Positions 16,871-40,581 of a stretch of DNA of 64,000 nucleotides are shown one piece after another. The position numbers and the translations under genes were made by a program. The notes beneath the pieces are model-generated. The model was not told the DNA's origin. It saw only the letters and a program-made list of their open reading frames with translations, and ran no database searches. The stretch's first letter is position 1; each line of letters starts with the position of its first letter. This DNA comes from Deltaproteobacteria bacterium (GTDB lineage: Bacteria; UBA10199; JACPAL01), in NCBI GenBank assembly GCA_016180845.1, contig JACPAK010000001.1:225707-289706 (forward strand). Direction: 5' to 3'.

Positions 16871-16976
16871 AAAAAATATTCTAAGATGAACCATACCGAA
16901 ATCACCTGACCACAATCATGTGATCGGCTGATTCGAATCATTCTCTCGAGACACGACTTCTCGATAATGGACCTTG

Positions 16977-20772: not shown

Positions 20773-21964
20773 GGTGTACAACTGGCAGATCGGGCGCGAG
20801 ATGGATTATCCGTATGACGAGATCCATCCGAAACGGCAATTCGCCGCCGTTTTTAACACGAATCGTTGCATCGCCTGCCAGACCTGTTCGATGGCCTGCA
20901 AGTCGACCTGGACCTTCTCGAAGGGGCAGGAATATATGTGGTGGAATAACGTCGAGACAAAGCCTTACGGAGGGTATCCACGCAACTGGGATCTGAAAAT
21001 CCTCTCTCTCCTGGCCAAGGCGGATCCGACCGGAGAAAAAACGATCTTTGAGGCGGCTCCCAGCGGAGAGAGGGTCTTGGGTTATCTGCCGGACGATCAG
21101 GAATGGAAGGCACCGAATCTCTACGAAGATACCTCCACAAAATACGATTCCGGTTCTGCCTTGGGCCTTTCCGGAAAAGGGGTCAGTCTCCCCGAGCATA
21201 AGGCCTGGTTCTTCTACCTCCAGAGAATTTGTAACCACTGCACCTACCCTGCCTGCCTGGCCGCTTGTCCGCGCAAGGCGATCTATAAACGGCCGGAAGA
21301 TGGGATCGTCCTGATCGATCAAGAGCGTTGTCGAGGTTACCGAAAATGTATGGAGGCCTGCCCTTACAAGAAACCGATGTTCAATGCCGAGACGCGCGTC
21401 TCGGAAAAATGCATCGCCTGTTACCCAAGGATCGAGGGAAAAGACCCCCTCCTCAAGGGAAGGCGGATGGAGACCCGCTGCATGTCGGCCTGTGTCGGAC
21501 AGATTCGTTTGCAGGGACTGGTCGATATCAACAAGGACGGCAGCTGGACCGAAAACCAAAAAAGTCCGCTCTACTATCTCATCAAGAAAACGAAGATCGC
21601 CCTCCCGCTCTATCCGCAGTTCGGGACGGAACCGAATATTTACTACATCCCGCCACGTTGGGTTCCGAAATCCTACCTCCATCAGATGTTTGGACAGGGC
21701 GTCGATGAGGCGATCGACAGATACCTGGCACCCGATCGCGAATTGCTGGCGGTCCTTCAACTCTTCCGGCGGAGTCAGGAGATCATCTTCCGCTATGAGA
21801 TTGAAGAAGGGCCGAAGGTCTTTGAGACGACTGTTCATGGGAAGCCGTTTTCTCTCTACAACGACACGATCATCGCCTTCGCAGAGGATGGGAAAGAAAT
21901 CTTCCGAACGACGGTAGAGGAGCCGGTTCATATCCGACCCAAGGAGCGAACCAATGCTGTTTAA
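20765..21964 (+). CDS. nxrB: Fe-S beta subunit of the NXR/NAR-like enzyme (NxrB/NarH family, four Fe-S clusters)
   Basis: MAKVYNWQIGREMDYPYDE…CIACQTCSMACK…EYMWWNNVETKPYGGYP. Multiple ferredoxin-type Cys motifs. Confidence 0.8.
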   Translation: MAKVYNWQIGREMDYPYDEIHPKRQFAAVFNTNRCIACQTCSMACKSTWTFSKGQEYMWWNNVETKPYGGYPRNWDLKILSLLAKADPTGEKTIFEAAPSGERVLGYLPDDQEWKAPNLYEDTSTKYDSGSALGLSGKGVSLPEHKAWFFYLQRICNHCTYPACLAACPRKAIYKRPEDGIVLIDQERCRGYRKCMEACPYKKPMFNAETRVSEKCIACYPRIEGKDPLLKGRRMETRCMSACVGQIRLQGLVDINKDGSWTENQKSPLYYLIKKTKIALPLYPQFGTEPNIYYIPPRWVPKSYLHQMFGQGVDEAIDRYLAPDRELLAVLQLFRRSQEIIFRYEIEEGPKVFETTVHGKPFSLYNDTIIAFAEDGKEIFRTTVEEPVHIRPKERTNAV

Positions 21965-23135
21965 GTTGTTTCTCCCCCTTATTGCCTTCGTTTTTGGCTG
22001 TGCGGCTGGAGCCAAAACAGATCCGATGGCGGAGGAGCTTTTGTCCAAGCTCTCTCAAGAGGGGAACCTGATCACCGTCGCTCAAGCAAAAGGGGAAATC
22101 CCTACCGACCCCACAGATCCCGCATGGCAAACAACACCGGAATCAATAATTCCACTCGTCTCACAAACCTCTCTCTCCCCCAAAACCCCCGTCTTTCAAA
22201 GAACCGATATCTCCGTTCGTGTGCTTTATGCCGGCAAAGAGATCGGTTTCCTGATCTCCTGGAGTGACCCGACCCGGAGTGAGAGCGAGGCAGGTGTCAC
22301 AAAATTTCGCGATGCGGTCGCGATCGGGTTTGCGCCGAACCTCAAAAATGCCGATTCGCTTCCTTACATCGGAATGGGAAACAAGGGGCGTCCGATGGCT
22401 ATCTGGCACTGGAAGGCAAGCTGGCAAGAGGATGTCAACCACGGCTATCAAGGGGTCGGCGAAGCTCATGCAGGGATGGTACCGAATATTTCTCCTATCC
22501 CCCATCGAACCGCTGACGAGGCCGGCTCCCCGATGGCACAGATGAAACGAACAAGTCCCGTTGAAAACCTTCTCGCTGAGGGGTTCGGAACGCTCACGTC
22601 GATACCGGGCAAGAATTTAACCGGAAATGGGATCTGGAATCAGGGACGATGGCATGTCGTGGTCAAGGGGGTACGACGCGCCGGTGGGAAAGGGATAGAT
22701 CCGGTCACCTTCGCCATCTGGGATGGGGCGAAGGAGAATCGAAACGGAATGAAGGGTCTGACCCGGTGGCGATTTCTCCGTTTTGAAGGAGAACCGGTCC
22801 CGCCAGACCTGCTCAACTCATTGATCATCGGCCCCCTGCCAGGTGCCGATCCGAAGAGAGGCAAACAACTCGTCACAGAAATGGGCTGCGTCTCCTGCCA
22901 CAACTTTCCGAACAACCCGACAGCCAATGACGTCGGCCCGGATCTGGCACATGCCGGCTCGATCCATCGTCCGGAGTATCTCCTCGAGTCGATCAAAGAT
23001 CCGAACGCCGTTATTGTCCCGGCGCCCGGTTACTTCGACCCAGAGACCTGGACCTCGACGATGCCGTCCTTCGGCGATCAGATCCCAGAAAAGGATTACA
23101 ACGATGTCGTCGAATACTTGAGGAGTCTGCAATGA
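21954..23135 (+). CDS. Gamma subunit: EbdC/DMSO-reductase-type-II heme-b domain fused to a C-terminal class-I cytochrome c domain; lipoprotein
   Basis: Lipobox (LIAFVFGC). Ethylbenzene-dehydrogenase-gamma-like domain (IWHWKASWQED…). C-terminal CVSCHN with a downstream Met-containing segment. Confidence 0.65.
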   Translation: MLFKLFLPLIAFVFGCAAGAKTDPMAEELLSKLSQEGNLITVAQAKGEIPTDPTDPAWQTTPESIIPLVSQTSLSPKTPVFQRTDISVRVLYAGKEIGFLISWSDPTRSESEAGVTKFRDAVAIGFAPNLKNADSLPYIGMGNKGRPMAIWHWKASWQEDVNHGYQGVGEAHAGMVPNISPIPHRTADEAGSPMAQMKRTSPVENLLAEGFGTLTSIPGKNLTGNGIWNQGRWHVVVKGVRRAGGKGIDPVTFAIWDGAKENRNGMKGLTRWRFLRFEGEPVPPDLLNSLIIGPLPGADPKRGKQLVTEMGCVSCHNFPNNPTANDVGPDLAHAGSIHRPEYLLESIKDPNAVIVPAPGYFDPETWTSTMPSFGDQIPEKDYNDVVEYLRSLQ

Positions 23136-23782
23136 ACCATCCATCGGACCTCTATAAAATTCTTGCCATCTGCTTTCGTCGCCCGGATGAGCCTCTCTTC
23201 GAGATATTTCGAAAAACAGACTCCTTTCGGGACATCCTCAAGGGCACCTCATTAGAAGGACTGCTTTCGGAACATACGCGGCTTTTTTCCTTAAGCGTGG
23301 CGGGCGGGATTCCTCCCTATGAAACCGAATATGGGCATAAAGATATCTTCTTCAAGACACAGCGTATGGCAGACATCGCCGGCTTTTGTCATGCCTTTGG
23401 GGTTGAGACGACAGACACGCCCCCTGAACGAATAGACTTTATCGGGTCCGAGCTGGAATTGATGTATTGGATCACCCTTAAGGAACAAAGAGCCATGGAT
23501 GCGGGAAAGACCGAACAAGCCGAGATCTGCCGGGATGCCGCAGCCAAATTTCTTCAGGACCACCTGGGACGCTGGGGCTCTTATTTCGGAGATCAGATCG
23601 CAAAATCGGCACACCTTCCTTTTTACAAACAAGTTGGTCAATCGCTTTTTGAATTGATTGAATCCGAATGCGAGCGTCTGAACGTGCAACCGGAAAGGGT
23701 CACCGGATGGAATCCGGAGCCGCTTTCTGCCACGGAGTTTGAGTGTGGGAGTGAGACAGGGTGTAAAGGAGAACTTTCATGA
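23132..23782 (+). CDS. TorD/NarJ/DmsD-family cytoplasmic chaperone (delta subunit)
   Basis: ATGA coupling. E(Y)xxLF-type TorD signature (EHTRLFSL…). Redox-enzyme maturation protein context. Confidence 0.65.
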   Translation: MNHPSDLYKILAICFRRPDEPLFEIFRKTDSFRDILKGTSLEGLLSEHTRLFSLSVAGGIPPYETEYGHKDIFFKTQRMADIAGFCHAFGVETTDTPPERIDFIGSELELMYWITLKEQRAMDAGKTEQAEICRDAAAKFLQDHLGRWGSYFGDQIAKSAHLPFYKQVGQSLFELIESECERLNVQPERVTGWNPEPLSATEFECGSETGCKGELS

Positions 23783-24240
23783 CAAGTATCACCGACTATT
23801 ACGCAAAAGACCATGACCGACTGGACGGTCTCTTCAAGACCTTCCAGTCAACCAAGAGAACTGATTTCGGGAGGGCGAAGGTGGCATTCGTTGAATTTAA
23901 ATTTGGTCTCCAGAGACATATCATCTGGGAGGAGGATATCCTCTTCCCCTTCTTTGAACAAAAGACGGGGATGAGGGATGGTAGCCCGACCGCTGTCATG
24001 CGAATGGAGCATCGTGAGATCCGTGACGCGCTCGAAAGCATCCACGCGAAGGTCGCCAAAAAAGACCCGAACTCCGATGAGTCAGAGGAGAGACTCGTCA
24101 CCGTCCTGACACAACATAACGTGAAGGAGGAGGAGATCCTCTATCCGGCTATCGATCGCTTGCTAACAGATCAAGAGAAGGAAACTGTTTTCAAGAGGAT
24201 GGAAGACATACCCCCGGAACGCTATGAAACCTGTTGCTGA
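23779..24240 (+). CDS. Hemerythrin-like (HHE cation-binding) domain protein
   Basis: H…HxxxE spacing (HREIRDALE, HNVKEEEILYP, DHDRL). Confidence 0.6.
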   Translation: MTSITDYYAKDHDRLDGLFKTFQSTKRTDFGRAKVAFVEFKFGLQRHIIWEEDILFPFFEQKTGMRDGSPTAVMRMEHREIRDALESIHAKVAKKDPNSDESEERLVTVLTQHNVKEEEILYPAIDRLLTDQEKETVFKRMEDIPPERYETCC

Positions 24241-24324: not shown

Positions 24325-24501
24325 ATGCGTCTTGGACCTTGGGAAATAGCAGCGATTGTTGTTGTGGCCCTCTTGATCTTCGGCCCCTCGAAACTCCCGA
24401 AGCTTGGTCAGAGTTTGGCGGAGTTTTTCAGGAATTTCAAAAAAGGGGTCAAGGAGGTCGAGAAGGAAGGAGAAGAGATCAAGAAGAGTCTGACGCCCTG
24501 A
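24325..24501 (+). CDS. tatA: Twin-arginine translocase subunit TatA/E
   Basis: MRLGPWEIAAIVVVALLIFGPSKLPKLGQSLAEFFRNFKK. GGAGGAGG Shine-Dalgarno at the correct spacing. The ORF-track TTG start lies upstream. Confidence 0.8.
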   Translation: MRLGPWEIAAIVVVALLIFGPSKLPKLGQSLAEFFRNFKKGVKEVEKEGEEIKKSLTP

Positions 24502-24628
24502 ACTCTAGAATCCGATCCCTCCGACCTAAACCCCTCGAAGGGCATGGTCGCAGGGACGGGGTAGCGCGGGAAACGGCGCTGCCTCCCGATTCCCGCTTGC
24601 TGCGGGATGAATTGGAAAGGAGCCCGGT

Positions 24629-25846
24629 GTGATTTCCGCTCATGAAGCGCAAAACATTATCCTCGAAAAAACAAGCCGGCTTGGAAACGAAGAGGTCCCC
24701 CTGTCCCTGTCGCTGCACCGATACCTCGCAGAGCCGATCACTGCCCCGATCGATCTTCCACCCTTTGACAACGCCGCTATGGATGGCTTTGCAATTCAAA
24801 GTGGCGATACGAAAACTGCCTCGGCCCAAAACCCGGTCACATTAAAAGTTGTTGGGACAATCGCTGCTGGAGATGCTCCCTCTCAAGCCGTTCTCAAATC
24901 AGGCGAATATTTCCGAATCATGACGGGGGCTCCCGTTCCGGATGGTGCCGATGCCGTCGTGCCCTTTGAAGAGGCTGTTCACACCCCCCTTGAGGTAAGA
25001 ATCATAAAACCAGTTCCCTCAGGTTCCAATATCCGCCTTGCCGGTGAGGATGTAAAAAAGGATCAAAGGATTCTCGATGTCGGAGAAAAGATCACCTCTC
25101 GTACGATTGCGCTCCTGGCGGCATTAGGTGTTTATCGAATCCCGGTTTTCAGGCATCCGAACATCAAGATCCTCGTAACCGGAAGCGAACTCACCGCCGT
25201 CGGACACCCTCTGCACGATGGAAAGATCTATAACAGCAATGGCCCTGCACTGACGGCCGCGTTACAAGAAATCGATATTATCCCTCAAATAGTCGTCTCC
25301 TCCGCGGATGTCGTCTCTGATCTCAAAACCTTCTTCACAGCCTCAGAAGAGGCGGATGCGCTGATAACAATCGGGGCGGTTTCCACCGGCGATTTTGATT
25401 TTATCCCTCAGGTCCTGAAGGGGATCGGTGCCGAAATAGCCTTTCACAAGGTCTCCATAAAACCAGGCAAGCCGCTCCTCTTCGCCACTTGGAAAGGGAA
25501 ACCGATCTTTGGGCTCCCAGGGAATCCGGTCTCCGCCCTAATGGTTTTTGAGCGCTTTGTCCGACCGGCACTCCTCAAGATGATGGGGGCAAATAATTTT
25601 TTACGAAGACGAGGGATCGCGGTCGCTACCGAAACTCTGTCTGGGAGCTTGGGCAAGGAAAACTATCTCCGAGGAATCGTTGAATCGTCTGGCAATGGAT
25701 CCCATGCCCGCTCCGCCGGGAAGCAAGGATCAGCCCATCTTCTTCCACTCGCTCGAGCTAATGCGATCTTGATCGTCCCTCCTGAAAAAGAGGAGATCCG
25801 CGCCGGAGAAACAGTCGAATTCGAAACATTTTTGGAGGAACTATGA
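24629..25846 (+). CDS. moeA: Molybdopterin molybdotransferase MoeA
   Basis: MoeA N-terminal domain (…PFDNAAMDGFA…) and MoCF-binding region (GGVSTGDFD-like). GTG start with a GGAAAGGAG Shine-Dalgarno. Confidence 0.8.
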   Translation: MISAHEAQNIILEKTSRLGNEEVPLSLSLHRYLAEPITAPIDLPPFDNAAMDGFAIQSGDTKTASAQNPVTLKVVGTIAAGDAPSQAVLKSGEYFRIMTGAPVPDGADAVVPFEEAVHTPLEVRIIKPVPSGSNIRLAGEDVKKDQRILDVGEKITSRTIALLAALGVYRIPVFRHPNIKILVTGSELTAVGHPLHDGKIYNSNGPALTAALQEIDIIPQIVVSSADVVSDLKTFFTASEEADALITIGAVSTGDFDFIPQVLKGIGAEIAFHKVSIKPGKPLLFATWKGKPIFGLPGNPVSALMVFERFVRPALLKMMGANNFLRRRGIAVATETLSGSLGKENYLRGIVESSGNGSHARSAGKQGSAHLLPLARANAILIVPPEKEEIRAGETVEFETFLEEL

Positions 25847-28944: not shown

Positions 28945-29703
28945 ATGCCAGACCCGATTTTTTATTTGATGCCGCTATTTTTTTTAACGGCCCTCATCTA
29001 CTCAACAGTCGGACTTGGAGGCGGATCAACGTATCTCGCCCTGCTGGTTCTCTTTTCAATCCCCTACCAGGCGATCCCGAAGATCGGCCTCATCTGTAAC
29101 CTGATTGTCGTGACGGGGGGATGTTTCTTCTATATAAAGGAAGGGCACTTCTCCTTCAAAAAAACAGTTCCATTTGTCCTAACCTCGATCCCCTTCGCCT
29201 ACCTCGGAGGACGGATTCCGATTCAGAAGGAATTTTTTCAACTTCTCTTAGGTTTTTCCCTTCTCGCCGCCGCCGTCAGGATGCTCCTCGCAGAAAAGGC
29301 CTACTCCGCCTCAGGTTCCATCGGATGGAAGAAATCTCTTCTGATCGGGTTGCCCATCGGCGCCCTTCTTGGTCTTCTCTCGGGGCTTGTCGGGATCGGT
29401 GGAGGAATCTTTCTCTCTCCCCTCCTCTGTCTCCTTCACTGGACAGATGCGAAAGGGGCCGCTGCCTCAGCCAGTTTCTTCATCCTCGTAAATTCCCTGG
29501 CAGGGTTGTCAGGACAGATCATGAAAAGTGGCGTTCTTCCGGAGATGATCTTCATCATTCCTCTGGGTGTGGCAGCATTGTTAGGGGGTCAGATCGGAAG
29601 TCGGCTCGGATCCCGCGAGATCCCAAAACTTGCCGTTCAGAGGATCACATCAATTCTGATCTTTTTTGTGGCAGGCCGCCTTCTCTGGAACGGATTTTTA
29701 TGA
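28945..29703 (+). CDS. TSUP/TauE-SafE-family (DUF81) membrane exporter
   Basis: Two-repeat polytopic protein with GLGGG…G motifs. Confidence 0.6.
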   Translation: MPDPIFYLMPLFFLTALIYSTVGLGGGSTYLALLVLFSIPYQAIPKIGLICNLIVVTGGCFFYIKEGHFSFKKTVPFVLTSIPFAYLGGRIPIQKEFFQLLLGFSLLAAAVRMLLAEKAYSASGSIGWKKSLLIGLPIGALLGLLSGLVGIGGGIFLSPLLCLLHWTDAKGAAASASFFILVNSLAGLSGQIMKSGVLPEMIFIIPLGVAALLGGQIGSRLGSREIPKLAVQRITSILIFFVAGRLLWNGFL

Positions 29704-30773
29704 TCATCAAGCCCTCACTCAGACTCCTCTTCTGGGAAACAACGACGGGATGCAATCTCGCCTGTATCCACTGCCGCCGTTTGGATGTCGCCACGGAGAT
29801 GATGCGAGATGACTTAAGCCTCGCCGAATCCTTCACCTTTATTCAGCAATTAAGAGAAGTGGGTCATTGCATTCTCGTCCTCTCCGGCGGTGAACCTCTG
29901 ATTCGAAAAGATATCTTCGATATCGCGCAGTATGCCAACTGGCAGGGACTCACCGTTGCGCTCGCGACAAACGGGACCCTGATTGATCGCGATGTCGCTT
30001 CCAAAATCCGAAAATCGGGAATCCATCGTGTCGCAATCAGCATTGATGGAAGTGATCCAAGCACGCATGATGATTTTCGCAAACAACCTGGCTCTCTCGC
30101 CGGAGCCCTTCAGGGAATGACCTTCTGTCGGCAGGAAGGGATCAGTCTGCAGATCAACTGCACGATCACTCAGCATAACGTCCATCAACTGGATCCGCTT
30201 TATCAATTGGCCCTCGAGCACCAGGCGGATGCGTTTCACCTCTTCATGTTGGTCCCGGTCGGCTGCGGGATGTCAATCGCCGATAGCCACATGCTCTCAG
30301 CCGAGAAGTATGAGGAGGTTCTAAATTGGATCTATGATCGGGCTCAGGAAAAAAAGATGTTTGTAAAGGCGACCTGCGCGCCGCACTATTTTCGGGTAGT
30401 GAATCAACGAGCTAAAAAAGAGCACCGCCCAATCGGGGGGGAGAAACAGGGGATGCATGCCTTTACCCGTGGTTGTTTGGCCGGCACCGACATCTGTTTC
30501 GTCTCGCACAAGGGCGACGTCTTCCCGTGTGGCTACCTTCCAGTTCCAGCTGGGAATATCCGTCATCAATCGTTCCGTGAGATCTGGGAAAAATCACCCG
30601 TCTGGGAAGGCTTCCGAAACACCGATCTTCTCGAAGGAAAGTGTGGGCTCTGCGAGTTCAAGAATATCTGTCTAGGCTGCCGGGCCCGCGCCTATTACGC
30701 CACAGGAAATTTTCTCGCGGAGGAGCCGTACTGTGCCTATGAACCGGTTGCCATGAGAAGGAGGGCCCGATGA
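29700..30773 (+). CDS. Radical SAM/SPASM-domain protein, AhbD/NirJ-like (heme synthase family)
   Basis: CNLACIHC radical-SAM motif. C-terminal SPASM Cys cluster (CAPHYF…CLAGTDICFVSHKGDVFPCGYLP…CGLCEF…CLGCRARAY). Confidence 0.6.
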   Translation: MIIKPSLRLLFWETTTGCNLACIHCRRLDVATEMMRDDLSLAESFTFIQQLREVGHCILVLSGGEPLIRKDIFDIAQYANWQGLTVALATNGTLIDRDVASKIRKSGIHRVAISIDGSDPSTHDDFRKQPGSLAGALQGMTFCRQEGISLQINCTITQHNVHQLDPLYQLALEHQADAFHLFMLVPVGCGMSIADSHMLSAEKYEEVLNWIYDRAQEKKMFVKATCAPHYFRVVNQRAKKEHRPIGGEKQGMHAFTRGCLAGTDICFVSHKGDVFPCGYLPVPAGNIRHQSFREIWEKSPVWEGFRNTDLLEGKCGLCEFKNICLGCRARAYYATGNFLAEEPYCAYEPVAMRRRAR

Positions 30774-31948
30774 TCAACGTGTCCAAACTCTACTGCGGAC
30801 ATGAGACGGAAAGTGATCGACTTCGTTATGGGGCCCACAAACAAACGAAATTAAGCGAGATCCGGCCGGTCGTAGTCTGGAATACCACCCGAAGGTGCAA
30901 TCTCAATTGCCTGCATTGTTACAGCGATTCTGAAAATAAAAACTACACCGGTGAGCTCACGACGGAAGAGGGGAAAAGACTGCTAAATGATTTAGCCGGC
31001 TTCAAGGCCCCCGCTGTTTTGCTCTCCGGCGGAGAACCCTTGATGAGGGGCGATCTTTTTGAACTTGTCGCGCATGGTCGTTCCTTGGGTCTCCGATTTA
31101 CCCTTTCGACGAATGGGACACTGATCAATCATTCAATGGCAAAAAAGATCTATGACAGTGGATTCGCCTATGTCGGGATCAGTCTGGACGGAATCGGTCC
31201 TACCAATGACCTCTTTCGTGGGAAGCTCGGTGCCTTCGAGGGGGCGCTTCGGGCGTTCCGAAATCTGAAATCGATCGGTCAAAAGGTCGGCCTCAGGATG
31301 ACGCTGACACGACACAATATCTCCGAACTCTCACGGATCTTCGACTTGATCGAAGAGGAGAAGATCGACCGCGCCTGTTTTTACCACCTCGTTCCTTCCG
31401 GGCGAGGCCGAATGATGGCCGATGACCTCCCGACATCCGAGGAGATACGACAGGCGGTTGAATTGATCTGCGAGAAGACGAAGAAGTGGTTTCAACGAGG
31501 GACTCCAAAGGAGATCTTGACGGTCGACAATCATGTCGATGGGATCTTCGTCTACCTGAAACTCCTCCGGGAAGACCCTGCACGGGCGGCAAAGATTTAC
31601 GAACTCCTCAAGATCAATGGAGGGGCGCTCAAGAGTTCTGGCGTTGGAATTGGCTGTATCGATTTTCTTGGGCATGTCCACGCCGACCAGTTCTGGATGC
31701 ACTACTCCCTCGGCAATGTCCGCAAACGTCCCTTCTCTGAAATCTGGCGTGATGAGCGCGAACCGCTTCTCGCGGGTCTCAGGAATCGAAAATCATTTCT
31801 GACAGGACGTTGCGCGAGTTGTCCCTATCTTGACCTTTGTGGTGGATCCCTCCGCGTTCGGGCAGAGCTACTGACCGGCGACCGCTGGGCGACTGATCCA
31901 GCCTGTTACCTTACAGGTGAAGAATTTGGTCGGGGCGCAGGGATTTGA
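30770..31948 (+). CDS. Radical SAM/SPASM-domain protein, AhbC/NirJ-like
   Basis: LYCGHE…RLRYG N-terminus. CNLNCLHC motif. C-terminal CASCPYLDLCGG…CYLTGEE. The 3-prime end overlaps the tRNA-Pro on the opposite strand by about 22 nt. Confidence 0.55.
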   Translation: MINVSKLYCGHETESDRLRYGAHKQTKLSEIRPVVVWNTTRRCNLNCLHCYSDSENKNYTGELTTEEGKRLLNDLAGFKAPAVLLSGGEPLMRGDLFELVAHGRSLGLRFTLSTNGTLINHSMAKKIYDSGFAYVGISLDGIGPTNDLFRGKLGAFEGALRAFRNLKSIGQKVGLRMTLTRHNISELSRIFDLIEEEKIDRACFYHLVPSGRGRMMADDLPTSEEIRQAVELICEKTKKWFQRGTPKEILTVDNHVDGIFVYLKLLREDPARAAKIYELLKINGGALKSSGVGIGCIDFLGHVHADQFWMHYSLGNVRKRPFSEIWRDEREPLLAGLRNRKSFLTGRCASCPYLDLCGGSLRVRAELLTGDRWATDPACYLTGEEFGRGAGI

Positions 31949-32003
31949 ACCCTGGACCTCTTGGTCCCGAACCAAGCGCTCTACCAGGCTGAGCTACGCC
32001 CCG
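31927..32003 (-). tRNA. tRNA-Pro (anticodon CGG), CCA encoded
   Basis: Cloverleaf reconstructed by hand. 7-bp acceptor stem CGGGGCG/CGCCCCG, anticodon loop UUCGGGA, T-loop UUCAAAU, 3-prime ACCA. Confidence 0.85.
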
Positions 32004-32047: not shown

Positions 32048-34855
32048 TTAGAAAAGAGACCCCCAAATAAGTTCCTCAATCTGGGCAATCGGAAAGGCAC
32101 CGGAGAATGGACCCAAATTGGGTAATTTTTCCGGAAGGGCTTTAGGTTCATAATAGCCGATCTCTGGATCATAATAACTCTGAGGGTAGTGCCCAAATCG
32201 ATTCCCGTCTTCTGTAACAATCTCTGTCCGCTCATGAAAGATCCCATGAGGAAAATGATGTGGGCTTGCATCAGGGTGGACAAAAGGGACGTAGGCAGGT
32301 GACATCCAGAAGGCAAGATTGCGGGCAAGTCGCTGCCAATCCCCGCGCTGCTGAAGGACGCTTCTTGCCTTCTCCGAAGAAATTCCCATGAGCGTCGAAT
32401 ACCCCTCGGCATGAAGTTCAAGGAGCCGATCGGCATAGAGGGCAAGCCGGCGATCCTCTTTCCAGAGCTCGCGTCCGTCGTGTTGGGTCACCATCCGCTG
32501 TCCAACAAGGAGATGGAGGGCAAAATAACTCTCAAAGAGGAGAAGAGCCCGAGCCATCGGGGAACTGTTCGCCCTTTCTACAAAATCGGCATGGCTCAAG
32601 TGAGGTCTCTCCCAGGCATGTTCGCTGACCGAGACATAATGATCTTTTGTCATCTTGCCTGGGATTTGAATCTCAGAGAGATTAGCCAACTCTTCAAAAT
32701 CCCTTAAGCCAGTGACCCCGAGATTGGCATATTTCAGGACGCCACGCCAATCCGAGAGCTTCCCCATCCCAAAGGCCATCGTCGGGAAAACAATATCGGG
32801 CGAAGGGATATAACGCCCATCATCCCTGGCCCTTTGGTAAGTGCCACCGTAGTGTATTGTCTGGGCATGAAACGCAACGAGAGGCGCTGTATGAAAAACA
32901 CCGTGACGCGCCAAGAGAGCAGCATCGTGGATCGCCATCCTAAGCCCTTTGAAAAAATCCTCATCCGAAGTGGAAGGATCGGCAAGCTGACGATAGTAGT
33001 CCCTCTCTGTTCGAAAGGCGATCGCCTCCCGACCATTGATTGTCAGAAGAAGAGGTCGACCCGCCTCGTCTCTGATAGGCTCCGGTAAATGGCTCTGTAA
33101 TCCCAAATTCTTCGTCACCTCTAACCATTGAAGCTCACGAACGAGATCTTCTCCCGACTGAGGCTTTCCACCCAAATGGACGGTGTGTGCATACTTAATC
33201 GCAAGAAACCCTCCCGTGCGGGGATCGGCATAGAGATCTGTCCGACCACTCTTCTGGGGTGTTTTCTCCCGAATCCCCTCTCGAGCCAAAAAGTCATCCA
33301 AAGTCATCACCTCCCTTGAGAAAGAGAGATCCCGTATCGTCACGGTCTGCGGCTCTTGAGGGAAGTGATGCAGAAAAGTCTTCATGAACCGTGGGACAGT
33401 GGAGGTCCGATGGCCCTGCATTGGGCCGAATCCAATCCGTCGAATTCTCAAGTCTCTCCAAATCGAATCGGCCAGATGTCGGAATCTTTTTTCTTTCAAG
33501 GCACACCCCAACCCCTCCGCGGCCAGGAGCGCAATGGAGTGATCGGGATGCCGAACCCCTGCCATCAGCAGATCAACAGCGACAGGGTTCAGCTGCTCCG
33601 GAACCACCTGACTTATATAGGCAAGCGCGCGGTAGGCATTGCGGAGCGAACTCACCTCAACTGAACCGTTCGTCCCATGGGCATTCAGATAGACAACCCA
33701 CTCATGCCACTTCCTTGACACCGCAAAGCCACACCGATGAGTATAGTCACCTTCATTCCCAAAGAGCATCGCACGACCTTCAGAATCTTTTATGATTTCT
33801 GGCGAATCAATTGGGAACGGCAGTCCTTTCAATCTCTCCATCCATTCAATCTCGGCGAAAAGGTTAACAATCCTCGTGTCCATCGCTCCCCGTGGATTTC
33901 TGAGAACAACGCACCGGTCGGGATTTGAAGGATCCTCGAAGAACTTGGAATAATGAATGCCCCCAAGCTCCTTACCCGAACTCAAGGGAACCCCTCGTGC
34001 TGCTAAAAATGCCTCCCCCACTTGCCCCGTTTCCACAAAAGAAGCTTTGATATCTTCAAAGAGGCGGAGCGGCCAAAAATCCGCCTGATCCCCAAACTCC
34101 GAGACAGCAGCCTGAATCTTCGTTAAATCAGGATCCCTCGTAAGGAACTGGGTTAAGCGAGATCGATTAACAATACTGTTGCCAACCTGATCTGGATCAA
34201 AACCGAGACGTCGTTCGAGAGATCTTGAACCTCGGCCAAAGAGCATTGTCACCTGCGAGTCAACACAACGAAAATAGAAACTCTCAAGGGTCCATGGGGT
34301 CGCCTGAATCTGGGAACCAAGTATCGATGTCGTAAGTCCCTCTCCCAGTATCCCTCCTCCCGTCATGACAACGCCCTGAGATATCGAACCGATCAAGTAA
34401 CCCAGCGGACCCATCAATTTCTCAAACATTTTTCCAACACCCATTAAGAGGAACCGGGCGGGGAGCCCTTCCGTCAGCTCGCAAACGACACGTTCTCCAT
34501 AATTACCATCTTTTTCAATTTGCCCTGTTTCCGAATCACGATATTCGCGGAAATTTGCCGACACAAGGCTCGTACCGATCTCATCCGCAAATATGGCTGG
34601 GAGCAAAAGAGACTTTTTTGATCGAAAACGAACGGAACGGGTGAGAAGATATTGTGTCCCATAAAAGAGGAATTCTCCCCAATGGGAAATCACGAATTGA
34701 TAGGCAAGGCTGAAAGGGTCTTTGAAATGATCTGCAATTCTTGAAAAAGTCCTTTCAGCGTCAACCCCGGACTGAGGATGCCTTTCATGATACAATCTCT
34801 CAGCGGCTGCGTAACCGGAATCGGCCTTAGGTATGCTTCTCAGTGCCTCTGACAT
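32048..34855 (-). CDS. Large hypothetical cytoplasmic protein (935 aa) with no recognisable motifs
   Basis: Long uninterrupted ORF next to the tRNA-Pro. No signal peptide. Lower GC than the surrounding genes. Confidence 0.5.
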   Translation of the reverse strand: MSEALRSIPKADSGYAAAERLYHERHPQSGVDAERTFSRIADHFKDPFSLAYQFVISHWGEFLFYGTQYLLTRSVRFRSKKSLLLPAIFADEIGTSLVSANFREYRDSETGQIEKDGNYGERVVCELTEGLPARFLLMGVGKMFEKLMGPLGYLIGSISQGVVMTGGGILGEGLTTSILGSQIQATPWTLESFYFRCVDSQVTMLFGRGSRSLERRLGFDPDQVGNSIVNRSRLTQFLTRDPDLTKIQAAVSEFGDQADFWPLRLFEDIKASFVETGQVGEAFLAARGVPLSSGKELGGIHYSKFFEDPSNPDRCVVLRNPRGAMDTRIVNLFAEIEWMERLKGLPFPIDSPEIIKDSEGRAMLFGNEGDYTHRCGFAVSRKWHEWVVYLNAHGTNGSVEVSSLRNAYRALAYISQVVPEQLNPVAVDLLMAGVRHPDHSIALLAAEGLGCALKEKRFRHLADSIWRDLRIRRIGFGPMQGHRTSTVPRFMKTFLHHFPQEPQTVTIRDLSFSREVMTLDDFLAREGIREKTPQKSGRTDLYADPRTGGFLAIKYAHTVHLGGKPQSGEDLVRELQWLEVTKNLGLQSHLPEPIRDEAGRPLLLTINGREAIAFRTERDYYRQLADPSTSDEDFFKGLRMAIHDAALLARHGVFHTAPLVAFHAQTIHYGGTYQRARDDGRYIPSPDIVFPTMAFGMGKLSDWRGVLKYANLGVTGLRDFEELANLSEIQIPGKMTKDHYVSVSEHAWERPHLSHADFVERANSSPMARALLLFESYFALHLLVGQRMVTQHDGRELWKEDRRLALYADRLLELHAEGYSTLMGISSEKARSVLQQRGDWQRLARNLAFWMSPAYVPFVHPDASPHHFPHGIFHERTEIVTEDGNRFGHYPQSYYDPEIGYYEPKALPEKLPNLGPFSGAFPIAQIEELIWGSLF

Positions 34856-35004: not shown

Positions 35005-35141
35005 ATGACCAAGTCCGGGTACCCGCCTGCGGCGGGTGGATTGCGGCGACCGAACCGGGGCGCCCGCTAAGGTGGGCCGGTGAGGAAGTACCCGAAGGCA
35101 AGAGCCGGAGGGTAAAATGGTTGGAAACGGAGTCGGAAACC
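35005..35141 (+). promoter_or_regulatory. GC-rich structured 5-prime leader upstream of the M20/AstA cluster; candidate riboswitch-like element
   Basis: Perfect hairpin ACCCGCC-UGC-GGCGGGU. Repeated ACCGAA/CCCGAAGG and GGAAAC motifs. GGAGGGUAAAAUGG resembles the guanidine-I (ykkC) conserved region. The class is not assignable without a covariance model. Confidence 0.3.
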
Positions 35142-36530
35142 ATGTCATGGAACCTCATCGAAGAAGCCAAAAAAATCATCGGGATCCGATCCTTGACCAA
35201 TGAGGGAACTCGAGCATTGGCCGAGCACCTTGTCCCCCTTTGCCGACAGGCAGGCCTCCAGATAACCCTTCGGCCCCCTTCCAAACCAACCGGTTTTGAT
35301 GAGCTGAATCTGATCGCACATACAGTACCGGACGGATCGGAAGATCTCTGTCCAAATGGGCTCTTGATGGTCACCCACCTCGATACCGTCCCGGCCGGAG
35401 ACCCTGCCTTATGGACAGAGACGTCAGGGAAACCTTTTCAGGCAACAATCAAAGGGGATAAAATCTATGGCCTCGGAAGTGCCGATACGAAGCTTGATTT
35501 TCTCTGCAAGCTAAAGGCGATCGAAGAGGTCGGCGTCAAAAACATCAAGATCCCCCTCTGCCTCGTCGGTTCCTACGGGGAAGAACGGGCGCTCGCCGGG
35601 ATTAAAGAACTGCGTCTTTCGGGGAGGGTCAAACCCCGTTTTGCATTAATCGGGGAGCCATCTGAATTAAAGCCGGTGCTGAAGCATAAGGGGATTTTGT
35701 ATATGCAAGCTTGTTTTGATTTGAAGGGCGGGTGGCTCGGGTCGGGCGCCCGCCCGCGCGCAACGGGTGAGCACGGGTGGGCGGAACCCGAGACAGGACC
35801 CGCCCTTGTGAAAACCAACATTTTTCATGGCCGCGCTGCGCATGGCTCGACCCCCCACCTCGGTGAAAACGCGATCTTTAAGGCGTTCGAGTGGCTCTTC
35901 GAGGAACAGAAAAAAAATCCGCTCATTCAATTGGCCGAAATCAACGGCGGGACGGTACATAATATTGTCCCTGAAACCTGTATGCTGAAAACTACTAGCG
36001 GAGAAAAACCATGCCCACGGATCGAATTCCTGAAGACCTTTTGGGGCCTTTATCAGACAGCGCAGGAAAGATTAGGAGAAAACACCGACTCGCTTTTTGA
36101 TCCACCAATCACCACGGGCAACGTCGGCGTCTTAAAGACAAAAGAAGATCGGATAGAGATGGAATTTGATTTTCGGTTAATCCCCGCCACGAATGGGAAT
36201 GAACTGTTCGAGATCTTTCAAAAAATTTCCCATCTTTCGGGTGCCTCACTTGAGGTAATCTCCTCAAATCCGCCGATGGATACTTCGGAGAGGTCGGAAA
36301 TTGTCCGGCATGTCTCTTCTTCATTAAAAGAGATCGGTCTTCCCGTGGAGTTTCATGCGAAGGCGGGGAATACAGAAGGGGCGATCGTGAGTCAGATGGG
36401 GGCTGAGGCGATCGTGATTGGCCCGGGACGTTCTACGGGAAACATCCATAAGCCGAATGAGTCGAATGAAATCTCGCAATTGAAAAAGGCGGTTGAGTTC
36501 TATGGGGTCCTTTTGAGGAGGTTTTGCTAA
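35142..36530 (+). CDS. M20-family metallopeptidase/deacylase (ArgE/DapE/ACY1-like desuccinylase or deacetylase)
   Basis: Metal-binding motifs HLDTVPAGD and GSADTK. Contains an 84-bp in-frame palindromic insertion. Confidence 0.7.
   Translation: MSWNLIEEAKKIIGIRSLTNEGTRALAEHLVPLCRQAGLQITLRPPSKPTGFDELNLIAHTVPDGSEDLCPNGLLMVTHLDTVPAGDPALWTETSGKPFQATIKGDKIYGLGSADTKLDFLCKLKAIEEVGVKNIKIPLCLVGSYGEERALAGIKELRLSGRVKPRFALIGEPSELKPVLKHKGILYMQACFDLKGGWLGSGARPRATGEHGWAEPETGPALVKTNIFHGRAAHGSTPHLGENAIFKAFEWLFEEQKKNPLIQLAEINGGTVHNIVPETCMLKTTSGEKPCPRIEFLKTFWGLYQTAQERLGENTDSLFDPPITTGNVGVLKTKEDRIEMEFDFRLIPATNGNELFEIFQKISHLSGASLEVISSNPPMDTSERSEIVRHVSSSLKEIGLPVEFHAKAGNTEGAIVSQMGAEAIVIGPGRSTGNIHKPNESNEISQLKKAVEFYGVLLRRFC
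35724..35807. repeat. An 84-bp GC-rich imperfect palindrome inserted in frame into the M20 peptidase gene
   Basis: Terminal inverted repeats aagggcgggt … acccgccctt, with inner arms sharing ctcgggt and ccgccc. It encodes GGWLGSGARPRATGEHGWAEPETGPAL, a sequence not seen in M20 enzymes. Confidence 0.6.
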
Positions 36531-36531
36531 T

Positions 36532-37404
36532 ATGAGCTTTCTCATCCGACCTGCCAGCTTGCCAGATACCGGGGATCTTCTCCGTCTCTCGTCATCCCTC
36601 TCAGCCAGAGGTTTCCTGACCCTCCCTGCGGATACGAAGGGGATTGAACATCTGATCAAGCTTTCCAGCCGATCCTTTTCCAACCAGTTGGATGACAGAG
36701 ATGAAGGGGAATACCTTTTTGTTTTGCGAGATAAAGATCAGGAAAAGATTATCGGATGCTCACTGATCATTGCCCGTCATGGAACTCCGGAGTCACCCCA
36801 CAACTATTTTGAGGTGCTCAAGGTTCAGAAGGCATATCGACGTCTGAACAAGGTCTTCAAGCACCAAATCTTGCGACTCCGCCTCGATGCGGAGGGGAGT
36901 ACCGAGCTGGGTGGCTTGATCCTCGATCCCGCCTATCGGGGCCACCCCGAAAAATTGGGGAAACAGATCTCTTTCGTAAGATTTCTGTACATTCATCGTC
37001 ACCCCGAAAAATTTATGGATCGTCTGCTCGTCGAACTCCTCCCTCCACTCACGCCGGATGGGAAGTCACTTTTTTGGGAATCACTTGGCAGGAAGTTTAC
37101 GGAAGTCGATTATCATGAAGCGGACCGTATTTCTCGAGAGGACAAAAGCTTCATCACCTCTCTCTTTCCTGAAGGAGATCTCTACGCTAACTTTTTGCCG
37201 GATGAGGCTCGTGCACTGATCGGTGAAGTCGGCCCAGAAACAAAACCGGTAGCCAAGATGTTAGAGGAGATCGGATTCACCTATCTTAGTCAGATCGATC
37301 CGTTTGATGGAGGTCCACATTACGGCGCGATGAAACAGTCGATCAAGATCGACAAGGTTGAATCCCTTTTTAACAAAAGTTCACTGAAGATAGAAATCGA
37401 TTAA
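36532..37404 (+). CDS. astA: Arginine N-succinyltransferase (AstA) family acyltransferase
   Basis: Block-wise match to E. coli AstA: IRP…, VLRDKDQEKIIGCSLII, LILDPAYRGHPEKLGKQISFVRFLYI, LFWESLGRKF, IDPFDGGPH. Confidence 0.7.
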   Translation: MSFLIRPASLPDTGDLLRLSSSLSARGFLTLPADTKGIEHLIKLSSRSFSNQLDDRDEGEYLFVLRDKDQEKIIGCSLIIARHGTPESPHNYFEVLKVQKAYRRLNKVFKHQILRLRLDAEGSTELGGLILDPAYRGHPEKLGKQISFVRFLYIHRHPEKFMDRLLVELLPPLTPDGKSLFWESLGRKFTEVDYHEADRISREDKSFITSLFPEGDLYANFLPDEARALIGEVGPETKPVAKMLEEIGFTYLSQIDPFDGGPHYGAMKQSIKIDKVESLFNKSSLKIEID

Positions 37405-37412
37405 GGAAACCT

Positions 37413-38399
37413 ATGTCACACGCGATCCTGATGGGCGACCCAACACATTTTCATATCTCAGGAGGGGCGAATCCTTTCACGAGAGACTGGTGGGGCCGCA
37501 GAAAGTTTGTTGATCAGACGAAGGCAGCCGAGCAGTGGAGACAACTCGCTCGAGTTTTGACCGACTTCGGCATCCAGGTCTTTGTCATCCCCTCTTCTCC
37601 GAATAATCCTGGCCTCGTCTACCCTGCCAATGCCGGTTTTTTGAGTCAGCTTGAGGAAAAAATTCCGATCCAAAAAAAGAAATTCATCCTCTCCAATCTC
37701 CTCCCCTCCAGGGCGGGGGAATGCCCGATCTATCGCGACTTTTTAAGAGGGCTCGGCTTCGCCGTCGTCACGATTAAACACCGCTTCGAAGGAGAGGCGG
37801 AACTTTTCCCCGTCGGTTCGGAACATATTTTTACCTACGGAGGGGTTGTGAAACAACGTTTCACCCCAAAACTTGGACTCCCCCCCTGGAAACGGGTCTA
37901 TGGCTTTCGCACGGAACGGGACGCCCTTCAGGAGCTCCGTCCCTATCTCGGTGTTTCCGCAGTCCATGATTTTGAATTGCTGCAGGAGTCCCACTATCAC
38001 GGCGACACTATCTTTTGTTCTTTTGGTGAAAAACGGGAATTCTTGCTCGTCTATCTGGAAGGACTCGCCCCCGAATCCCGCGAGAGGTGCGTCAAGATCT
38101 TCGGGGATCGACTAATCCCTCTCTCCACACGAGATGCCTTTTTCTATGCGACAAACTCCTTTCAGGTTCGAACCAAGGAAGGTTTGAAACTGATTGTCCC
38201 TGAAGGAGCCAGTCATATTCTTTTGAAAGAAATTGAAACGCGTGGTGTTCAACCTTTCCCGATCAATGTCTCCGAATTTTTAAAAAAGGGGGGCGGTGCA
38301 GTGAAATGTATGATCGGAGATTTGGGGGAGTTGATCGATGAGACGAGTCAAGTGACTCCATCGATACAAAAATTTCGAGAAGAACACCTATTTCGTTGA
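37413..38399 (+). CDS. Amidinotransferase-superfamily hydrolase (AstB/arginine-deiminase/DDAH-like) with a C-terminal catalytic Cys
   Basis: C-terminal GGGAVKCM catalytic-Cys motif characteristic of guanidino-group-modifying enzymes. 328 aa. Confidence 0.55.
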   Translation: MSHAILMGDPTHFHISGGANPFTRDWWGRRKFVDQTKAAEQWRQLARVLTDFGIQVFVIPSSPNNPGLVYPANAGFLSQLEEKIPIQKKKFILSNLLPSRAGECPIYRDFLRGLGFAVVTIKHRFEGEAELFPVGSEHIFTYGGVVKQRFTPKLGLPPWKRVYGFRTERDALQELRPYLGVSAVHDFELLQESHYHGDTIFCSFGEKREFLLVYLEGLAPESRERCVKIFGDRLIPLSTRDAFFYATNSFQVRTKEGLKLIVPEGASHILLKEIETRGVQPFPINVSEFLKKGGGAVKCMIGDLGELIDETSQVTPSIQKFREEHLFR

Positions 38400-38430
38400 C
38401 AATAGCTCACCAGAAAATCAATAATAAATC

Positions 38431-39549
38431 ATGTCGCGAAACGGCACAGCACCTGAGATAGAAAGTTTACCGCTGATTCATCTCAAAGATCCCATCAAGA
38501 AGAAGGAAAAGAAAAATATCCTCTCGGAAGAGATTCGACCGATCGATCTTGAAAAAACAAAAACGATCGCCGATCTGATCGAGGCGTTCGGAGGGATGTC
38601 GATCCAGGCGAGGCGGATCGGTCAGTGTGCGGAGGTGCTGCGGAATCTCTATGCCGACAAGGATCGGCCCACTGTCTTTCTGGGACTTGCGGGTCCCTTG
38701 ATCGCTGCCGGTTTAAGAAAAGTGATCCGTGACATGATTGCGTATGGTCTCGTCGATGTCGTCGTCTCTACAGGGGCGATCATCTATCAGGATGTTTATC
38801 AGGCGCGTGGTTACCGTCATTATAAAGGATCCCCAAACGCTGACGACGCCAAGCTGCGGGATCATTATATTGACCGCATTTACGACACCTACGTCGATGA
38901 GGAAAAATTTTGGGAGACCGATTGTTGGGTCGGGAAATTTGCCGACACACTTCCTCCGGGCAATTACTCCTCACGAGCCTTCCTGGAAAAGCTTGGTTCC
39001 GTCTTGAAAGACGAGGACTCTTTCTTGGCAACCGCTGTCAAAAAAGGAGTTCCCGTTTTTGCGCCGGCCATCAATGATTCCTCGATCGGGATCGGACTGA
39101 CCGAACATTACCATCGTTGTTCTCAAGAGGGGCGCAAGGGACTTTCGATTGATTCGATTCGTGATAACTACGAACTCACCCAGATTGTTGAGAAATCCAA
39201 AAAGACCGCCGCCTTTTATGTCGCCGGGGGGGTCCCGAAGAACTATATTAATGATAGCGTCGTCATGTGCTACATCTTTGGCCGTGAGACTGGAGGTCAT
39301 ACCTATGCCCTCCAAATCACGACCGATGTCCCACATTGGGGTGGGCTCTCTGGAAGCACACTCGAAGAGGCGACCTCGTGGGGAAAGATCAATGCGAAAT
39401 CAACCCGCGCGATGGCGTTTGTGGAACCGTCCGTCGCCCTCCCCCTGCTGGTCGGATATTGCCTCCAAAAAGAGCTGACCAAAAATCGAAAATCGCTCCT
39501 GCTGCAGTGGGAAAAAGACAGGCTAAATACCTTGAAAGTTTCTCCTTAA
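38431..39549 (+). CDS. Deoxyhypusine synthase-like protein (DHS/homospermidine synthase family)
   Basis: DHS-family blocks STGAIIYQDV, VFAPAINDSSIG and AGGVPKNYI (NAD-binding). Confidence 0.7.
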   Translation: MSRNGTAPEIESLPLIHLKDPIKKKEKKNILSEEIRPIDLEKTKTIADLIEAFGGMSIQARRIGQCAEVLRNLYADKDRPTVFLGLAGPLIAAGLRKVIRDMIAYGLVDVVVSTGAIIYQDVYQARGYRHYKGSPNADDAKLRDHYIDRIYDTYVDEEKFWETDCWVGKFADTLPPGNYSSRAFLEKLGSVLKDEDSFLATAVKKGVPVFAPAINDSSIGIGLTEHYHRCSQEGRKGLSIDSIRDNYELTQIVEKSKKTAAFYVAGGVPKNYINDSVVMCYIFGRETGGHTYALQITTDVPHWGGLSGSTLEEATSWGKINAKSTRAMAFVEPSVALPLLVGYCLQKELTKNRKSLLLQWEKDRLNTLKVSP

Positions 39550-39971
39550 TGCATTGGAAGTTTCGTCCGTGCCCATTGATAAAACGAATGAAATTTTTTT
39601 GAGGAGAGCATCGCTTCGTTTTCTGCGAGTTTTCGTCCCTCCCAGCCGGCAAGAATTTTCAAGTCAAAAAGCTCTGCGAGCCAGCGGATCGCTTGCCCAT
39701 CCTCTGAGAGTGAATAGAGCCGAAGAAGAAGATAGCATAGCTCTCCATGTCTTTCGCTCGCCGTCCGAATCCCGCTGACATGGGCCAGGACCGCTTCTCC
39801 CAGCAAATAACCGGCCTGTATCCATGAAAGGGTTGCCTGATGAAAATCTCCTCGCCTGAGATAATGTTCTGCCATCCTGGAATGATCGATAGCGGTCTTG
39901 ATGAGGGTTTTCCATTCTTCAGGCGAAACAGGTCTCTGGTGTGATTTTCTTCTAAGAACGGGCCGTATCAT
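39546..39971 (-). CDS. HEPN-domain protein (toxin component of a HEPN/MNT pair)
   Basis: HEPN helical N-terminus and an Rx4-6H motif (RTASERH). Overlaps the upstream MNT gene. Confidence 0.65.
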   Translation of the reverse strand: MIRPVLRRKSHQRPVSPEEWKTLIKTAIDHSRMAEHYLRRGDFHQATLSWIQAGYLLGEAVLAHVSGIRTASERHGELCYLLLRLYSLSEDGQAIRWLAELFDLKILAGWEGRKLAENEAMLSSKKFHSFYQWARTKLPMH

Positions 39972-40581
39972 TTCTGTATTCCTCTATTCCCCTCCCAAAA
40001 AGGAGTTTCCCTTCACTATATATTTTGCCCATAAGGGGGTGATTTTGGGAGATCTTGTTTCTTAATTCAGAAACGCTCAGAACATAAGGGACAAGGAGAT
40101 TCCCTCCAAATTCCGTCAGGAGGGGAAGCCTTTTTTGGGCCAGGATCCGCTGAACATCGCTCTTCCCCTCTTCGTCTGAGACAACCACCAAAATATCGAT
40201 GCCGGAAAAAGTGGTCTCGTTACCCCTGGCGACACTCCCAAAGAGGATCACCGATTCGGCAAGAGGTTTGAGCGGATGAAGAATCTTCTCCATGAAGTGA
40301 TGAAAGGCATCTTTCTCTTTTTGAAAAAGTGGGACCAGGATCTCTCGAACAAGGTAGGAACCCTTATTCATTTTATAGAGAAAACTCTTGCCAGCATGCG
40401 TGAGTTCAAGAACCCCTGTGTTCAGGAGTTCTTTCAGAGCCTGATGACAGGACCACACCCCCATCCCTATCTGGATCGCAATCTGACGCCCCGAGAGGGG
40501 GTTGCCAGCAGCAAGCTTCCTCAAGATATTGACCTTCATCTTTGTTCCCAAAATCTCATCGAGGAAATTCGAGAAGATCAT
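39952..40581 (-). CDS. Minimal nucleotidyltransferase (MNT) with an N-terminal winged HTH (antitoxin component)
   Basis: LFGSVARG…GIDILVV nucleotidyltransferase motif. N-terminal wHTH. Confidence 0.7.
   Translation of the reverse strand: MIFSNFLDEILGTKMKVNILRKLAAGNPLSGRQIAIQIGMGVWSCHQALKELLNTGVLELTHAGKSFLYKMNKGSYLVREILVPLFQKEKDAFHHFMEKILHPLKPLAESVILFGSVARGNETTFSGIDILVVVSDEEGKSDVQRILAQKRLPLLTEFGGNLLVPYVLSVSELRNKISQNHPLMGKIYSEGKLLFGRGIEEYRNDTARS

Follow-up and report, generated by a model that had tools for sequence, protein, structure and literature searches.

A group of four closely spaced genes in Deltaproteobacteria bacterium contig JACPAK010000001.1 (assembly GCA_016180845.1) raises the question of whether their products act together on arginine and, if so, in which pathway. 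The genes lie at positions 35142 to 39549 of the 64-kb stretch analysed here (the window) and encode an M20 deacylase, an AstA-like N-succinyltransferase, a guanidino-modifying enzyme (GME) with the amidinotransferase fold and a protein of the deoxyhypusine synthase (DHS) family. The original prediction, made from the sequence of the window, was of a succinyl-protected route from arginine to ornithine or citrulline, or to a polyamine of the homospermidine type. With moderate confidence, the first three genes (the trio) are assigned here to a variant of the arginine succinyltransferase (AST) catabolic pathway that would yield nitrogen, and the DHS gene is regarded as an independent neighbour.

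All four open reading frames (ORFs) are on the + strand at the positions predicted, with gaps of 1 nt between the M20 and AstA-like genes, 8 nt between the AstA-like and GME genes, and 31 nt between the GME and DHS genes. The M20 ORF (35142-36530; 462 aa) opens at a TTG codon at 35121, and the ATG at 35142 aligns with the start in the relatives L086/L087. It is followed by the gene for the short-form AstA-family protein (36532-37404; 290 aa), the gene for the single-domain GME (37413-38399; 328 aa) and the DHS-family gene (38431-39549; 372 aa). Motifs resembling ribosome-binding sites are found at the M20/AstA and AstA/GME junctions, and GAGGAGG precedes the start of the AstA-like gene. Together with these motifs, the 1- and 8-nt gaps indicate that translation of the three genes of the trio is probably coupled. 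In tblastn searches of the window with reference proteins from E. coli and Bdellovibrionota (E ≤ 1e-3), no homologues of AstB, AstC, AstD or AstE were detected, in agreement with the earlier statement that a transaminase and a dehydrogenase are missing.

The product of the second gene matches the Pfam AstA profile (PF04958) with 270.3 bits (threshold 29.4) over positions 2-268 of 337. It is 33% identical to E. coli AstA and matches PDB 1yle with E 1e-30. In alignment, it lacks approximately 55-90 C-terminal residues of the canonical protein, and it scores 176.8 on TIGR03244 (cut-off 391) and 191 on TIGR03243 (cut-off 284), the NCBIfam models for AstA/AOST.

The third gene product was originally described as an AstB-like hydrolase, a description that has to be given up. 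It shows no BLAST similarity to E. coli AstB (hhalign probability 0.35%) and no match to AstB (PF04996) in Pfam or NCBIfam, and tblastn with E. coli AstB was empty in the window and in all loci. The Pfam match is to DDAH_eukar (36.8 bits), and the best sequence match among solved structures is AgrE/ArgZ (phmmer E 6e-15). Foldseek searches with the AlphaFold model of the protein (pLDDT 91.6) placed ArgZ/AgrE (TM 0.74/0.89) above AstB, and AstB above DDAH; thus, the two known guanidino dihydrolases are its nearest neighbours in structure. Both sequence and model place the GME closest to the ArgZ/AgrE arginine dihydrolase neighbourhood, outside the AstB family. The cyanobacterial ArgZ/AgrE enzymes (PDB 6juy, 6lrf) share with it the Cys-His-Asp residues and the equivalent of ArgZ Asn71. 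However, the GME is just 23-25% identical to them, has one domain and lacks the fusion to ornithine cyclodeaminase, carries a 3-residue insertion with an invariant Arg (NPFTRxWWG motif) and is always encoded beside AstA. Its scores on the NCBIfam models are 78.8 for NF052232 (arginine dihydrolase; cut-off 450) and 74.6 for NF052231 (cut-off 1025).

Across 33 sequences of the GME family, Cys299, His196, Asp198 and Asn73 are invariant. Asn73 corresponds to ArgZ Asn71, and the trapping of a covalent reaction intermediate in the ArgZ N71S mutant (PDB 6juz) points to a role for this residue in the reaction. A further invariant residue, Gly67, replaces AgrE Asp65 and human DDAH1 Asp73, and the equivalent of DDAH1 Arg98 is kept as Arg100. 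In the DDAH1 structures, Asp73 presumably binds the α-amino group of the substrate and Arg98 its carboxylate. Given these roles, loss of the Asp and retention of the Arg would fit a substrate with an acylated α-amino group. The family comprises at least 120 clusters at ≥50% identity, some members of which are labelled 'arginine deiminase-related protein' (in Methylomirabilota and Spirochaetota). No close homologue was found on annotated plasmids, where the only matches were to distant actinobacterial DDAH-like proteins (24-28% identity). In a recent survey, enzymes of the ArgZ type were reported to cluster with a large uncharacterised group (PMC11659421).

The M20 protein, an ArgE/DapE-like metallo-deacylase, matches Pfam Peptidase_M20 (84.9 bits) and M20_dimer (40.2 bits). 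Aligned with E. coli ArgE (PDB 7rsf), it retains the H, D, EE, E and H motif residues. Its best NCBIfam models are those for ArgE, and all curated ArgE and DapE models are under cut-off (TIGR01892, 140.7 versus 297.7; TIGR01910, 105.6 versus 217.6). The ArgE motifs kept are HxDTVP, GxADxK, EE, GEP and H-x-P-x-E, and their residues are presumably the metal-binding and catalytic ligands. The M20 fold with its dimerisation domain and the aligned motif residues are thus common to this protein and to ArgE and DapE. It differs from them in being approximately 60-80 residues longer, in scoring far below the cut-offs of the curated ArgE and DapE models, and in having AstA as the partner gene instead of arg or dap genes. 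No match to E. coli AstE was found, and an M20 gene lies inside the operon instead. The claim that M20 stands in AstE's place was upheld, and the M20 enzyme is proposed to be the desuccinylase of the module.

Conservation of the trio was assessed in the first-tier loci, i.e. those in which a GME gene with ≥57% identity could be placed (the window, L083, L084, L086/87, L088, L089, L090-L097 and L118). In each of them, the GME gene directly follows a short astA, and the M20 gene is upstream wherever the contig reaches. Because this order recurs in every locus with a close GME homologue, the arrangement is not due to chance, and M20-AstA-GME is a predicted operon that is conserved as one. Synteny across genomes, named in the original prediction as a check for all four families, was found for these three, and their co-conserved, coupled unit lends support to the proposed variant of a known pathway with M20 in place of AstE. 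Scanning of species-representative genomes with an AstA profile gave 80 loci, mostly from Bdellovibrionota and Myxococcota. The M20 gene is immediately upstream of astA in 59 of these, and neither AstB nor AstE was found within 10 kb of AstA in any of the 80.

The remaining steps of the AST pathway appear in related lineages. The usual operon in Bdellovibrionota has the order class-III transaminase-M20-AstA-AstD (aldehyde dehydrogenase), and M20-AstA-AstD also occurs; the model for succinylglutamate-semialdehyde dehydrogenase gives 472 bits for the product of the gene at the AstD position. In Methylomirabilota (L121-123), the arrangement is prkA-yeaH-spoVR-transaminase-AstA-GME, and the transaminase of L121 is 43% identical (363 bits) to that of the Bdellovibrionota operon. 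A sister lineage (L124/125) has prkA-yeaH-spoVR-M20-AstA-GME, with M20 at the position of the transaminase; the AstA and GME proteins of L124 are 66% and 71% identical, respectively, to those of L121. No homologue of AstB or AstE was detected by tblastn in the Bdellovibrionota, L121-123 or L124/125 loci. Recombination of transaminase, M20, AstA, AstD and GME genes around AstA is the pattern expected for components of one pathway, and it suggests that GME takes the AstB step and M20 the AstE step of the AST pathway.

In the two lineages represented by L121-L125 (e.g. L124, positions 1-8020), the AstA-GME module comes right after prkA-yeaH(DUF444)-spoVR. The E. coli homologues of these three genes are tied to nitrogen starvation and stationary phase, and the adjacency may hint at shared regulation with AstA-GME.

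Every substrate and reaction in the following scheme is predicted. The AstA-like enzyme would transfer the succinyl group from succinyl-CoA to the α-amino group of arginine. GME, a member of another family of the AstB superfamily, would then play the AstB role and convert N2-succinylarginine to N2-succinylornithine, CO2 and two NH3. The steps between GME and M20 would fall to a transaminase of the AstC type and a dehydrogenase of the AstD type, with genes outside the operon. Finally, M20, as the replacement for AstE, would remove the succinyl group, most likely from N-succinylglutamate to give glutamate and succinate. The genes for this pathway are evidently dispersed, and hence the lack of a particular gene in the operon says little about its presence in the genome.

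The relationship of the DHS gene to the trio is different. It directly follows the GME gene in the window, in L086/87 and in L088; one gene separates the two in L092 and two genes in L118, with DHS within 4 kb of the trio in both. All of these loci share either the downstream synteny porin-(amt)-glnA-dsbA-serS or a nearby tRNA-Pro(CGG), and thus represent one lineage. In L089, the trio is followed directly by the porin gene. The reverse situation is seen in L116, a complete genome of 2.7 Mb with the order tRNA-Pro, DHS, porin and no trio; the 1.7-kb uncalled gap before its DHS gene contains an unrelated degraded gene and the tRNA-Pro gene, and no remnants of the trio. In total, L116 and L117 have DHS but no trio, L089, L083, L084 and L093 have the trio with no DHS nearby, and L121-125 have AstA-GME with no DHS nearby.

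A sigma-70-type promoter-like element (TTGACA-18-AATAAT; 38396-38425, + strand) stops 5 nt short of the start codon of DHS and is the best match in the region (11/12). An exact TTGACA (TTGACC in L092) is present upstream of the DHS start in the window, L086, L088, L092, L118 and L116, at a distance of approximately 20-45 nt in the five loci other than L092. L116 and L118 keep TTGACA though the gene preceding DHS is not GME. Because of the conserved promoter-like -35 sequence, the occurrence of DHS without the trio and of the trio without DHS, and the single synteny lineage, the DHS gene is probably transcribed independently and held beside the trio by ancestry or lineage-specific synteny, not by shared function. 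Its inclusion in a four-gene unit is therefore not upheld. Separate transcription and lack of co-conservation had been named at the outset as grounds for abandoning the unit, and most of this applies to DHS but not to M20-AstA-GME, which is co-conserved.

The DHS-family protein (Pfam DS, PF01916; 293.9 bits) keeps the catalytic Lys (human K329, in SWGK) and the equivalents of E323 and W327. The position of human His288 is occupied by Asn, as in SpeY-type proteins. Scores for deoxyhypusine synthase proper do not reach the curated cut-offs (TIGR00321, 252.8 versus 304; NF002006, 343 versus 434). On the SpeY model NF002699, the protein scores 319.6 against a cut-off of 500, and its clade relatives P0148 and P0149 score 322 and 327, as compared with 564 and 592 for the context-defined SpeY proteins L119 and L120; the SpeY proteins passing the cut-off are one from Sphingomonas, defined by an upstream ornithine decarboxylase-like gene (564), and a Nostoc homologue (592). 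The clade itself (P0121-P0240) is 65-80% identical across metagenome-assembled genomes (MAGs) labelled 'Deltaproteobacteria', Margulisbacteria, Planctomycetota and Omnitrophota. In the Margulisbacteria locus L117, a 75%-identical DHS gene is found among genes of the methionine and methylthioadenosine-salvage type, with methionine-pathway genes before it and an amidohydrolase gene and a PNP/MTAP-type gene after it.

Diverse bacterial DHS homologues (SpeY) were reported in a 2026 study to couple two agmatines to N1,N9-bis(guanidino)homospermidine (G44G) (PMC13625781), which is then converted by partners of the agmatinase or agmatine iminohydrolase type (PMC13625781; PMC10981699). The window protein resembles these SpeY/CdmS diagmatine synthases in the DHS fold, the catalytic Lys and the motifs IDRIYDTYxDE and PKN[YF], the latter with Asn for human His288, and is 37-42% identical to context-defined SpeY. 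It differs in its score, in forming a separate clade and in its surroundings, as no partner of the arginine decarboxylase, agmatinase or agmatine iminohydrolase type was found in the window or in the flanks of DHS in L116, L117 and L118. Membership in SpeY is thus not established, and chemistry of the SpeY kind may be taken as the default guess. Being highly conserved and lacking an assigned function, the clade is a candidate for asking whether diagmatine synthesis is the function of every DHS homologue in bacteria.

Several points weigh against assignment of the trio to a complete AST pathway. Completion to glutamate is assumed, since tblastn found no AstC- or AstD-type gene in the window or the flanks of any first-tier locus. 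Those relatives of GME that are nearest to it and have been characterised use free arginine as substrate rather than succinylarginine. The argument from the Asp-to-Gly replacement depends on the presumed roles of the DDAH1 residues and on a profile alignment with a probability of 19%, although the phmmer alignment to AgrE independently agrees with it in the Asp65/Gly67 segment. The M20 proteins of different lineages are just 25-36% identical and need not share a substrate, and all family-specific NCBIfam equivalog scores for the proteins of the window are under cut-off. As regards independence of the DHS gene, its proximity to the trio, whether adjacent or a short distance away, in five separate loci could reflect a functional link, and with no terminator predicted between GME and DHS, co-transcription by read-through is possible.

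A shorter route deserves consideration, in which arginine would be succinylated, GME would form N2-succinylornithine or N2-succinylcitrulline and M20 would desuccinylate the product at once, so that arginine is converted to ornithine (or citrulline) and ammonia with neither transaminase nor dehydrogenase. The trio is complete and compact, AstC and AstD are near no first-tier locus, and the best matches of M20 are models for ArgE, the acetylornithine deacetylase, i.e. hydrolases of N-acyl-ornithine. However, such a route would spend the thioester of succinyl-CoA on a conversion that enzymes of the ArgZ type carry out on arginine itself. Moreover, L121 and L124 alternate an AstC-type transaminase and M20 at one position beside AstA-GME, and Bdellovibrionota join M20 with AstC and AstD, and both patterns imply that transamination of the succinylated intermediate follows. 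This ending of the route is therefore considered unlikely; of the original proposal of ornithine or citrulline as the product, the lack of AstC and AstD in the window stands, and the operons of the sister lineage and Bdellovibrionota weaken the rest. The order of the first two steps could also be reversed, with GME converting free arginine to ornithine, the AstA-like enzyme succinylating ornithine and M20 remaining the final desuccinylase. ArgZ and AgrE, the nearest characterised relatives of GME, indeed use free L-arginine, Pseudomonas AOST accepts ornithine, and the AST-like operons of Bdellovibrionota with neither AstB nor GME nearby suggest that their AstA can start from ornithine. On the other hand, the residue aligned with the α-amino-binding Asp of DDAH1 (AgrE Asp65) is an invariant Gly, and GME is always beside AstA in the loci examined, a linkage that an enzyme of free arginine would not need. 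The reversed order is thus quite improbable.

Participation of all four genes in polyamine synthesis, as suggested originally, would have the DHS protein act as SpeY and make G44G from agmatine, GME serve as a diagmatine hydrolase of a new type, and M20 and AstA process carbamoyl or acyl intermediates. SpeY does need a guanidino-hydrolysing partner, one known type of such partner, the agmatine iminohydrolases, is part of the GME superfamily (PMC13625781), and the DHS gene is only 31 nt from GME here and close to the trio in L092 and L118. Nevertheless, the constant partner of GME is AstA and not DHS, with AstA-GME found in phyla and loci that have no DHS nearby, and DHS is found without the trio and has its own conserved promoter-like element. 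In addition, Pfam scans of 40 ORFs of the window revealed no arginine decarboxylase or agmatinase, the DHS flanks examined contain neither, and the scheme leaves no role for an arginine-type succinyltransferase. With DHS separable from the trio, the four-gene polyamine route is not supported and is judged highly improbable. Hardly more probable, and still very unlikely, is a polyamine route independent of arginine decarboxylase, in which AstA would protect, GME deguanidinate, the DHS clade couple to a homospermidine-type product and M20 deprotect. The same low probability applies to a related reading, in which GME would be the partner of this DHS clade and a diagmatine (G44G) dihydrolase of a new class. 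Assignment of the trio to the AST pathway, with the DHS gene as a neighbour, is preferred.

Downstream of DHS, a convergent gene pair on the - strand is followed by genes for a porin, amtB, glnK and glnA. The ast operon of E. coli is nitrogen-regulated, and the nitrogen context given by amtB-glnK-glnA fits a trio for arginine breakdown. The convergent pair (39546-40581, - strand) encodes an MNT-like nucleotidyltransferase with an N-terminal helix-turn-helix domain and a 141-aa HEPN-like partner, with a 20-nt overlap. It is also present in L088 and missing in L116 and L118, and is likely a toxin-antitoxin insertion between the DHS and porin genes.

Upstream, a tRNA-Pro(CGG) gene identified by ARAGORN (31927-32003, - strand) is the landmark that bounds the segment with the trio. 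The same tRNA gene is found in L092 (5662-5737), 80 nt before M20; in L084 (7098-7173), upstream of M20; and in L116 (7819-7892), where the trio is missing, 108 nt before DHS. Since it adjoins the trio, or DHS where the trio is missing, the trio occupies a segment of variable content next to a tRNA gene. The stretch from tRNA-Pro to the trio contains, in this genome only, a 935-aa ORF (32048-34855, - strand) that has no Pfam domain and shows a weak NCBIfam likeness to SidJ-family polyglutamylase/pseudokinase effectors (E ~1e-10, far under cut-off). Exactly between the conserved upstream block and the M20 start codon lies a GC-rich, single-copy insertion of 137 bp (35005-35141, + strand), which is missing in L086/L087, related at 89%, and in every other locus examined. 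A riboswitch or structured leader 5' of M20 was considered and rejected, as there was no Rfam match even at E ≤ 10 and the fold energy was ordinary (z = -0.33); the GC-rich region is thus explained as an insertion that relatives lack. Likewise, a search of 11 upstream regions for a sigma-54 promoter ahead of M20 yielded no site resembling TGGCAC-N5-TTGC.

Further from the trio, two adjoining radical SAM/SPASM-domain proteins of 550 and 392 aa are encoded just upstream of tRNA-Pro (29121-31948, + strand); such pairs are typical of peptide-maturation systems. A molybdenum-cofactor riboswitch (24500-24636, + strand; Rfam RF01055, 51.8 bits) lies directly upstream of moeA, which is followed by the molybdenum-cofactor biosynthesis genes moaA, moaC/mog and a mobA-like gene. 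The regions 16974-24240 (+ strand) and 3674-9009 (- strand) contain a cluster for a type II molybdoenzyme of the DMSO-reductase family (large subunit, Fe-S subunit, EB_dh/cytochrome c subunit, NarJ-like chaperone and hemerythrin) and genes for large multihaem cytochromes, one of which has 1184 aa and Ig-like domains. This content suggests an anaerobic respiratory lifestyle.

The findings suggest that an AST-type pathway operates in lineages outside Pseudomonadota, with an ArgZ-like dihydrolase and an M20 desuccinylase in place of AstB and AstE. Among these lineages are 'Deltaproteobacteria' MAGs from groundwater and Methylomirabilota, and also Bdellovibrionota as far as the M20 part is concerned. 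If so, a function would be provided for proteins now labelled 'arginine deiminase-related' or 'hypothetical' in the at least 120 clusters of the GME family (≥50% identity), and metabolic reconstructions in which these organisms are scored as unable to break down arginine would have to be corrected. The GME family might also be a natural example of a shift within its superfamily between free and N-acylated arginine through an Asp-to-Gly replacement.

No paper describing the combination of M20, AstA, GME and DHS genes was found in the literature. Like the AST pathway encoded by astCADBE in E. coli and aruCFGDBE in Pseudomonas, the module has an AstA-family core, a guanidino dihydrolase step, a final desuccinylase step and a nitrogen-assimilation context, and related lineages join it to an AstC-type transaminase and an AstD-type dehydrogenase. 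It differs in that an ArgZ/DDAH-like GME is found in place of AstB (PF04996), itself known mainly from Pseudomonadota (PMC11659421), and an ArgE/DapE-like M20 enzyme in place of AstE. Further differences are the lack of the C-terminal segment in the AstA of the window, the lack of transaminase and dehydrogenase genes in the operon, and the hosts, which are uncultured MAGs labelled 'Deltaproteobacteria', Methylomirabilota and others. The system is therefore best classed as an AST variant that is new by family-level replacement of two steps, those of AstB and AstE.

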